Assembly (NCBI RefSeq): GCF_003334335.1 | Contig: NZ_QOWQ01000179.1 | Source of the DNA: Escherichia coli | GTDB lineage: Bacteria > Pseudomonadota > Gammaproteobacteria > Enterobacterales > Enterobacteriaceae | Strand: one strand, 5' to 3' | Length of the DNA: 506 bases | Notes under the pieces: model-generated | Told to the model about the DNA's origin: nothing | The model's input: only the letters and a program-made list of their open reading frames with translations | The model's database searches: none | Translations under genes and position numbers: made by a program | In this document: one piece after another, positions 1 to 506 of the stretch | How positions within the stretch are numbered: position 1 is the first letter of the stretch | How the letters are laid out: every line of letters starts with the position of its first letter

Positions 1-506
1 CTGAGCTCGGTTTCAAGCGCCAGCATGGCTGCATGCGCCCGGTCTTCCTGGCGCTCACCGGCAGACACCTTCACACCGGACGGCTTTTTCTGCGTCGACT
101 CATAATCCTTTTTTGCCGACGCCATCAGCGTGTTGTAATCCGCCTGCAGGATTTTCCCGTCTTTCAGGGCCTTATTCAGCTCTTCCTGCCGGGCGGTATA
201 TTTCTCCAGTGGCGTCAGCAGGCGCTCATACGCCTTCTGCGCCTCTCCGGTATACTTCAGCTGTGACGACTCACGCTCAGCCCTGTCCCTTGCCGCCAGT
301 TCACCGGCTTTTTCCATATCCGACTGCAGCGTTGCCGCTGCCAGACCCAGACGGGCATTTTCCCGGTCATCCCATGCGCCCTGAAGGTTGGCCCGGAAAG
401 AGGAGGTTTTACCGCGGCGCTGGCTCCGGCTCTGGTACCACTGCCATTTTTTATCCGCCTCATCAAATGCCTTCTGCGCACTGGCGAGCATATCCGCTGA
501 GGATTC
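1..506 (-). CDS. H: Phage tail tape measure (tail length determination) protein, lambda gpH family; internal fragment, truncated at both window edges
   Basis: Seen directly: the minus-strand frame with first complete codon at 506..504 has no stop codon over 168 codons (506..3; bases 2..1 are a partial codon). Translation: ESSADMLASAQKAFDEADKKWQWYQSRSQRRGKTSSFRANLQGAWDDRENARLGLAAATLQSDMEKAGELAARDRAERESSQLKYTGEAQKAYERLLTPLEKYTARQEELNKALKDGKILQADYNTLMASAKKDYESTQKKPSGVKVSAGERQEDRAHAAMLALETEL. The two ORFs in the supplied track are shorter and lie in other frames. Composition is rich in A/E/K/Q/L/R, as expected for a helical tape measure protein, and GC is about 58.7% (297/506 by hand count). From memory, not a search: the stretch LKYTGEAQKAYERLLTPLEKYTARQEELNKALKDGKILQADYNTLMASAKKDYE closely matches the central region of phage lambda gpH, and the upstream WDDRE motif aligns at the same spacing (39 residues) as in lambda. 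The gene symbol H is the lambda name for this family; this is a homolog, not lambda H itself. Confidence 0.9.

Follow-up and report, generated by a model that had tools for sequence, protein, structure and literature searches.

The four homopolymeric A runs on the coding strand of the window, by which we mean the whole 506-nt stretch of Escherichia coli DNA under analysis, are very probably a functionless by-product of lysine codons in a tail tape-measure gene of the lambda gpH type, and they bring with them a modest risk of single-nucleotide indels. Nothing was found in the analysis that argues for a function of the runs. Observed directly were the runs and the codons in which they lie, the kind of gene to which they belong, the outcome of a chance test at the level of codons, and two indel cases from relatives, one an assembly error and one a true mutation.

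The helical middle part of the tape-measure protein is rich in lysine, which occurs there in KK dipeptides and in an EK pair, and the A5 and A6 runs are present because of this richness and because lysine is encoded solely by AAA and AAG. Homopolymers of this length, these runs among them, are subject to a modestly higher risk of single-nucleotide indels. In error-prone assemblies such indels surface as errors of base calling or of the consensus; more rarely they are true replication-slippage mutations, which are kept only in prophages released from selection. The expected consequence of a single-nucleotide indel would be a truncated protein that has lost its C-terminal domain, and a gene annotated as a frameshifted pseudogene.

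The caution about homopolymers, drawn earlier in a preliminary description of the same DNA, is valid in principle, quantitatively minor and already common knowledge. In practice, where tape-measure genes of lambdoid prophages look frameshifted, single-nucleotide changes in the A runs of lysine codons are a plausible cause. The understanding of tape-measure proteins, of frameshifting and of prophage biology is unaltered by these runs.

Coding context and identity of the gene

The runs were located by direct reading and by a regular-expression scan of the 506-nt window. Positions refer to the plus strand, on which the A runs of the coding strand appear as T runs.

1..506, minus strand: codons 319-486 and 2 further nt from the interior of a tail tape-measure gene of the lambda gpH type
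85-89 (T5), coding strand minus: A5 run in CAG AAA AAG CCG (QKKP; K458, K459)
109-114 (T6), coding strand minus: A6 run in GCA AAA AAG GAT (AKKD; K450, K451)
309-313 (T5), coding strand minus: A5 run in GAA AAA GCC (EKA; K384)
407-410, minus strand: A4 run in GGT AAA ACC (G-K-T), the counterpart of an A5 run, GGA AAA ACC, in relatives
447-452 (T6), coding strand minus: A6 run in GAT AAA AAA TGG (DKKW; K337, K338)

The preliminary description had given the coordinates and lengths of the four longer runs and the encoded QKKP, AKKD, EKA and DKKW exactly. It had also taken the frame to be intact, and the minus-strand frame from base 506 is indeed open through the entire window, with stops present in the remaining two minus-strand frames. 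The longest run in the window has six nucleotides. The scan further returned three plus-strand T4 runs (152-155, 358-361 and 407-410) and no run of four or more of any other base on the plus strand of the window.

By homology and synteny the gene is a tail tape-measure gene of the lambda gpH type, with a predicted role in setting tail length. The window corresponds to positions 6001-6506 of a locus (L003) of the RefSeq record NZ_CP027340.1 with 100% DNA identity. There the CDS at 5047-7620 (2574 nt) encodes a protein of 857 aa annotated as ‘phage tail tape measure protein’. Prophage DNA that is 100% identical was found in 11 RefSeq E. coli genomes among the matches listed, 127 records are at least 99% identical to the window, and its first 504 bases are identical to Escherichia phage PhiR5_1. 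The E. coli matches to the window number 4,428.

The earlier assignment of the gene as a tape measure is borne out by several results that agree with each other. Translated, the window hits PHROG 24 with E=3.9e-33, a family named ‘tail length tape measure protein’, and its 168 aa align by BLASTP with residues 319-482 of lambda gpH (NP_040595.1) at 56% identity (E=3e-52). Within the 857-aa protein, the Pfam domains TMP_2 (residues 54-256, 8.1e-70) and Tape_meas_lam_C (residues 631-705, 1.1e-21) were detected, and the window falls between the two. The gene order in NZ_CP027340.1 is that of a lambda-like tail cluster, namely V (major tail protein), the chaperones G and T, the tape measure, and then M-, L-, K-, I- and J-like genes. 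According to the RefSeq annotation the gene occupies the place of the lambda tape measure, following directly on the G/T chaperone genes and preceding M and L.

The comparison with lambda itself gives both likeness and difference. Lambda shares the order of genes from G and T through the tape measure to M and L, as well as the Pfam domains, and lambda H has the lysine pairs AKKD and (Q/L)KKP together with their A5 runs. It differs in that its AKKD site reads GCG AAA AAG (A5) where the window has GCA AAA AAG (A6), in that two codons are inserted after KKP (KKPKQSS), and in that it carries longer runs elsewhere in the gene, one A7 and one G7. At the DNA level the resemblance to lambda H is confined to coding-strand nt 239-492 (86%), whereas for coding-strand nt 1-238 of the window lambda H offers no match in its DNA. 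Of the E. coli matches, about half likewise span only coding-strand nt 239-492. A putative mosaic junction is indicated near window position ~268 (coding-strand nt ~239), the 5′ part being apparently of a different sequence type.

Number and stability of the runs

The window contains four T runs of at least five nucleotides. Compared with a mononucleotide shuffle this number is high (mean 0.43, P(≥4)=0.0002), and it is still high if dinucleotides are preserved (mean 1.26, P(≥4)=0.015). If the codons are permuted synonymously, which holds the protein and its codon usage fixed, the mean rises to 2.31 and four or more runs occur with P=0.11. The run count is therefore greater than base composition predicts, but not greater than protein and codon usage predict, although the four observed runs lie on the high side of this last null distribution. 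The excess over base composition arises because the protein is rich in lysine (16 of 168 residues, with three KK dipeptides and one EK pair) and because of its usage of AAA and AAG (9:7 in the window). The codon permutation gives no sign of selection for or against the runs themselves. The full host gene of 2574 nt has 14 homopolymer runs of at least five nucleotides; together with the A7 and the G7 of lambda H this makes the window typical of its gene family.

To describe the runs among relatives, 80 IMG/VR sequences and three fetched loci were combined into a set of 83. These are close relatives, with about 92-100% DNA identity, and for this reason the invariance of the DKKW A6 run, which is the same in 83 of 83, says little. 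The EKA run is an A5 in 82 of 83, the sole exception being CP025907.1 with an A4. The AKKD site reads GCA AAA AAG in 56 of the relatives and GCG AAA AAG (A5) in the other 27, and at the QKKP site 73 have an A5 and 10 an A6 (AAA AAA CCG). Within the 80 IMG/VR sequences no out-of-frame length change was found at any of the four runs, and the sole length changes were in-frame insertions of 6 nt directly after QKKP. A spread of 60 RefSeq records matching the window showed length differences of only 0 or +6 nt.

We also searched 5,426 complete RefSeq E. coli genomes for six variants with one nucleotide fewer or more, with a threshold of 99% identity and, for the −1 variants, queries of 88-91 nt. 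The −1 variants of all four runs and the +1 variants of both A6 runs gave 0 exact matches. The −1 queries for DKKW, EKA, AKKD and QKKP matched 1226, 583, 2341 and 551 records respectively, none of them with at least 99% identity. Such searches catch only alleles that agree with the window throughout the flanking ±42 nt, and those with an extra SNP would be missed. Within this exact-flank limit the runs are stable. The word ‘hotspot’, which had been applied to them before, exaggerates the risk in polished assemblies, as seen from the 80 IMG/VR relatives, the 60 RefSeq records and the 0 exact ±1 variants.

The in-frame insertion is an observation in its own right. It adds two codons at window positions 83-84 (…AAAAAGCCG AAGTCG TC…), just 3′ of the QKKP run on the coding strand, and is present in 22 of the 83 relatives; the insertion in lambda H is similar. 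The tape measure thus varies slightly in length, and its length is expected to set that of the tail.

Two frameshifted relatives

The exception at the EKA run belongs to a record that is broken in many places. CP025907.1 (‘Escherichia phage 204576’, a ‘complete genome’ in GenBank) has an A4 in place of the A5 at 309-313, and three additional single-nucleotide indels inside the window. Over 3.5 kb (positions 1516-4993 of its locus, L001) it differs from the IMG/VR locus L051 by one substitution and 30 single-base indels, of which 28 are deletions and two are insertions. The share of runs that are deleted varies with the length of the run:

Run length 1: 0.2%
Run length 2: 2.0%
Run length 3: 4.3%
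Run length 4: 9.7%
Run length 5: 25%
Run length 6: 0/3
Run length 7: 1/1

This homopolymer-biased pattern points to uncorrected consensus or sequencing error as the probable source of the indels. The tape-measure gene and its neighbors are broken into short ORFs in this record, which resembles an unpolished assembly. That a single-nucleotide indel at one of the listed runs can mimic a frameshift in another assembly, as had been anticipated, is illustrated here by the A4 at the EKA run.

The second case is of a different kind and lies at the run that is only an A4 in the window. Intact relatives have GGA AAA ACC (A5) where the window has GGT AAA ACC (A4) at 407-410. In the Stx2a-converting phage LC727840.1 (position 3096 of locus L002) one nucleotide is deleted at the codon homologous to 407-410. 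The window matches 33 GenBank records of Stx2a phages, of which this one was inspected, and the net +5-nt span is the same in 23 Stx2a rows among the matches listed. A literature search on the phage record LC727840 returned no paper. The E. coli record NZ_CP027325.1 (locus L085) shows the change as well: over gene nt 1-1,500 it differs from the intact NZ_CP027548.1 (locus L086) by the A5-to-A4 deletion at gene nt 1053, by one substitution, and by nothing else. Its gene also contains a CAG-to-TAG nonsense mutation at codon 526 (nt 1575-1577), PGAP flags it ‘frameshifted; internal stop’ and classes it among the pseudogenes, and in the same prophage of strain 2013C-4830 an IS600 truncates the neighboring upstream tail gene. 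The exact deleted allele was found in two of the 5,426 complete RefSeq E. coli genomes.

We conclude that the A5-to-A4 change of the Stx2a lineage is a genuine mutation, carried by a prophage in decay, and that it probably arose by replication slippage. The nonsense codon and the IS insertion in the L085 prophage speak for decay, not for switching. Phages of this lineage that carry the tape-measure pseudogene may fail to build their own tails. The expectation that homologues would be found frameshifted thus stands in so far as PGAP flags a gene with an A5-to-A4 change at a lysine-codon run; it does not stand as to place, as the change sits at a neighboring site and not at any of the four runs.

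At the site of this deletion, gene nt 1047-1053 of NZ_CP027548.1, we observed an in-phase G_GGA_AAA, a heptamer of the X_XXY_YYZ type. The window does not have it, reading GGT AAA instead. The heptamer of the relatives resembles the G_GGA_AAG shift site of lambda G-T.

The known phenomena of pseudogenes frameshifted at homopolymers and of homopolymer consensus errors in long reads have their likeness in these two cases, in the length-dependent deletions of CP025907.1 and in the A5-to-A4 change annotated ‘frameshifted’ in NZ_CP027325.1. The difference is that all runs of the window are intact and that the real frameshift took place at a run that has only four A in the window.

Alternative readings of the runs

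The earlier reading of the runs passed over the sole element with a known translational slippage property. It overlaps the AKKD run and is followed by a stop in the shifted frame:

108-114 (gene nt 1347-1353), minus strand: heptamer A_AAA_AAG, read in phase and known from dnaX and IS911 as a −1 ribosomal frameshift motif
100..102, minus strand: TGA stop of the −1 frame, reached two codons past the heptamer (AAA AAA GGA TTA TGA)

Across the 2574 nt of the gene no other X_XXY_YYZ heptamer is in phase. A −1 shift at this site would yield a truncated product of 453 aa ending in ...AKKGL, and one could regard the motif as a used ribosomal frameshift site that makes this product beside the full-length protein, as in dnaX. 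The heptamer is identical to that of dnaX and IS911, its phase is the correct one, GC stands before it just as it does in dnaX, and the −1 stop comes soon after. A_AAA_AAG is moreover among the most efficient motifs in E. coli if stimulators are given, and E. coli genes contain markedly fewer copies of it than expected (PMC4066793).

What distinguishes the window from dnaX and IS911 is the surroundings of the motif and its conservation. With a position 6-17 nt before the motif as the criterion for a Shine-Dalgarno-like (SD-like) stimulator, no GGAG, GAGG or AGGA was found in the upstream 20 nt (ACAACACGCTGATGGCGTCGGC). The downstream 81 nt show no significant stimulatory hairpin or pseudoknot: their minimum free energy is −25 kcal/mol, the shuffles average −23.4 (z=−0.53), and 60 of the 200 shuffled sequences are no less stable than the native one. 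The heptamer is present in 56 of the 83 relatives and is not conserved in the other 27 nor in lambda H, where the synonymous change from GCA to GCG gives G_AAA_AAG. By chance it emerges in 6.3% of the synonymous permutations. Heptamers that have no stimulators reach merely 2-10 times the background of ~0.055% (PMC4066793). Because stimulators and conservation are lacking, the chance occurrence is of this order and the unstimulated rate is low, the heptamer at 108-114 is most likely incidental, and any frameshifting would amount to a fraction of a percent.

We therefore consider its use as a frameshift site very unlikely. Equally improbable, to our mind, is the related idea that it might yield a small constant fraction of the 453-aa N-terminal half of the tape measure, comparable to the gamma product of dnaX. 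If this were true, the fragment might help to assemble tails in those lambdoid prophages whose sub-lineage has GCA and not GCG.

Still less probable is a role of the A runs as mutational switches, i.e. contingency tracts, or as sites of transcriptional slippage that tune the expression of the tape measure or tail competence. One lineage, that of the Stx2a phages, does have a tape-measure gene that was inactivated by the contraction of a homopolymer. This sole real frameshift, however, sits in a prophage that an IS insertion and a nonsense codon mark as decaying. Known phase-variable tracts are generally longer than 5-6 nt. For bacteria, transcriptional slippage of high efficiency is described at runs of ~9 A or T, matching the RNA-DNA hybrid of 9-10 bp (PMC5009743), and the runs of 5-6 nt, the longest being six, are too short for an efficient form of the transcription slippage that had been suggested for them. 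A contingency locus would be recognized by tract lengths that vary among close strains, and at the four runs there is no out-of-frame length change in the 80 IMG/VR relatives and no exact ±1 variant in the 5,426 genomes. By this absence of length polymorphism the switch or slippage reading is largely refuted.

The least credible reading, that the runs of the window are themselves sequencing artefacts with miscounted homopolymer lengths, found no support in the analysis and is opposed by the intact frame over the window, by the 100% identity in 11 independent RefSeq genomes among the matches listed, by the 127 records of at least 99% identity, and by the matches to several IMG/VR contigs and one sequenced phage. 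As stated above, we regard the runs as a by-product of the lysine codons.

Other features of the window were considered and rejected. A scan of both strands against Rfam (E≤1) gave no match to a non-coding RNA. An antisense promoter or terminator, as the plus-strand T runs could suggest, would call for such sites, and none were found on either strand of the window. Two alternative ORFs, 33-266 (plus strand, 77 aa) and 257-481 (minus strand, 74 aa), are without support; the latter is the frame that is entered after an upstream single-nucleotide deletion, as in the Stx2a pseudogene. In place of functional repeats the window has just short two-copy matches. Among these, positions 81-90 and 305-314 share the identical 10-mer CGGCTTTTTC, which reads GAAAAAGCCG on the coding strand and holds two of the four runs. 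The two copies are in different codon phases (AAA AAG CCG versus GAA AAA GCC G), and for this reason the recurrence is most likely a coincidence.
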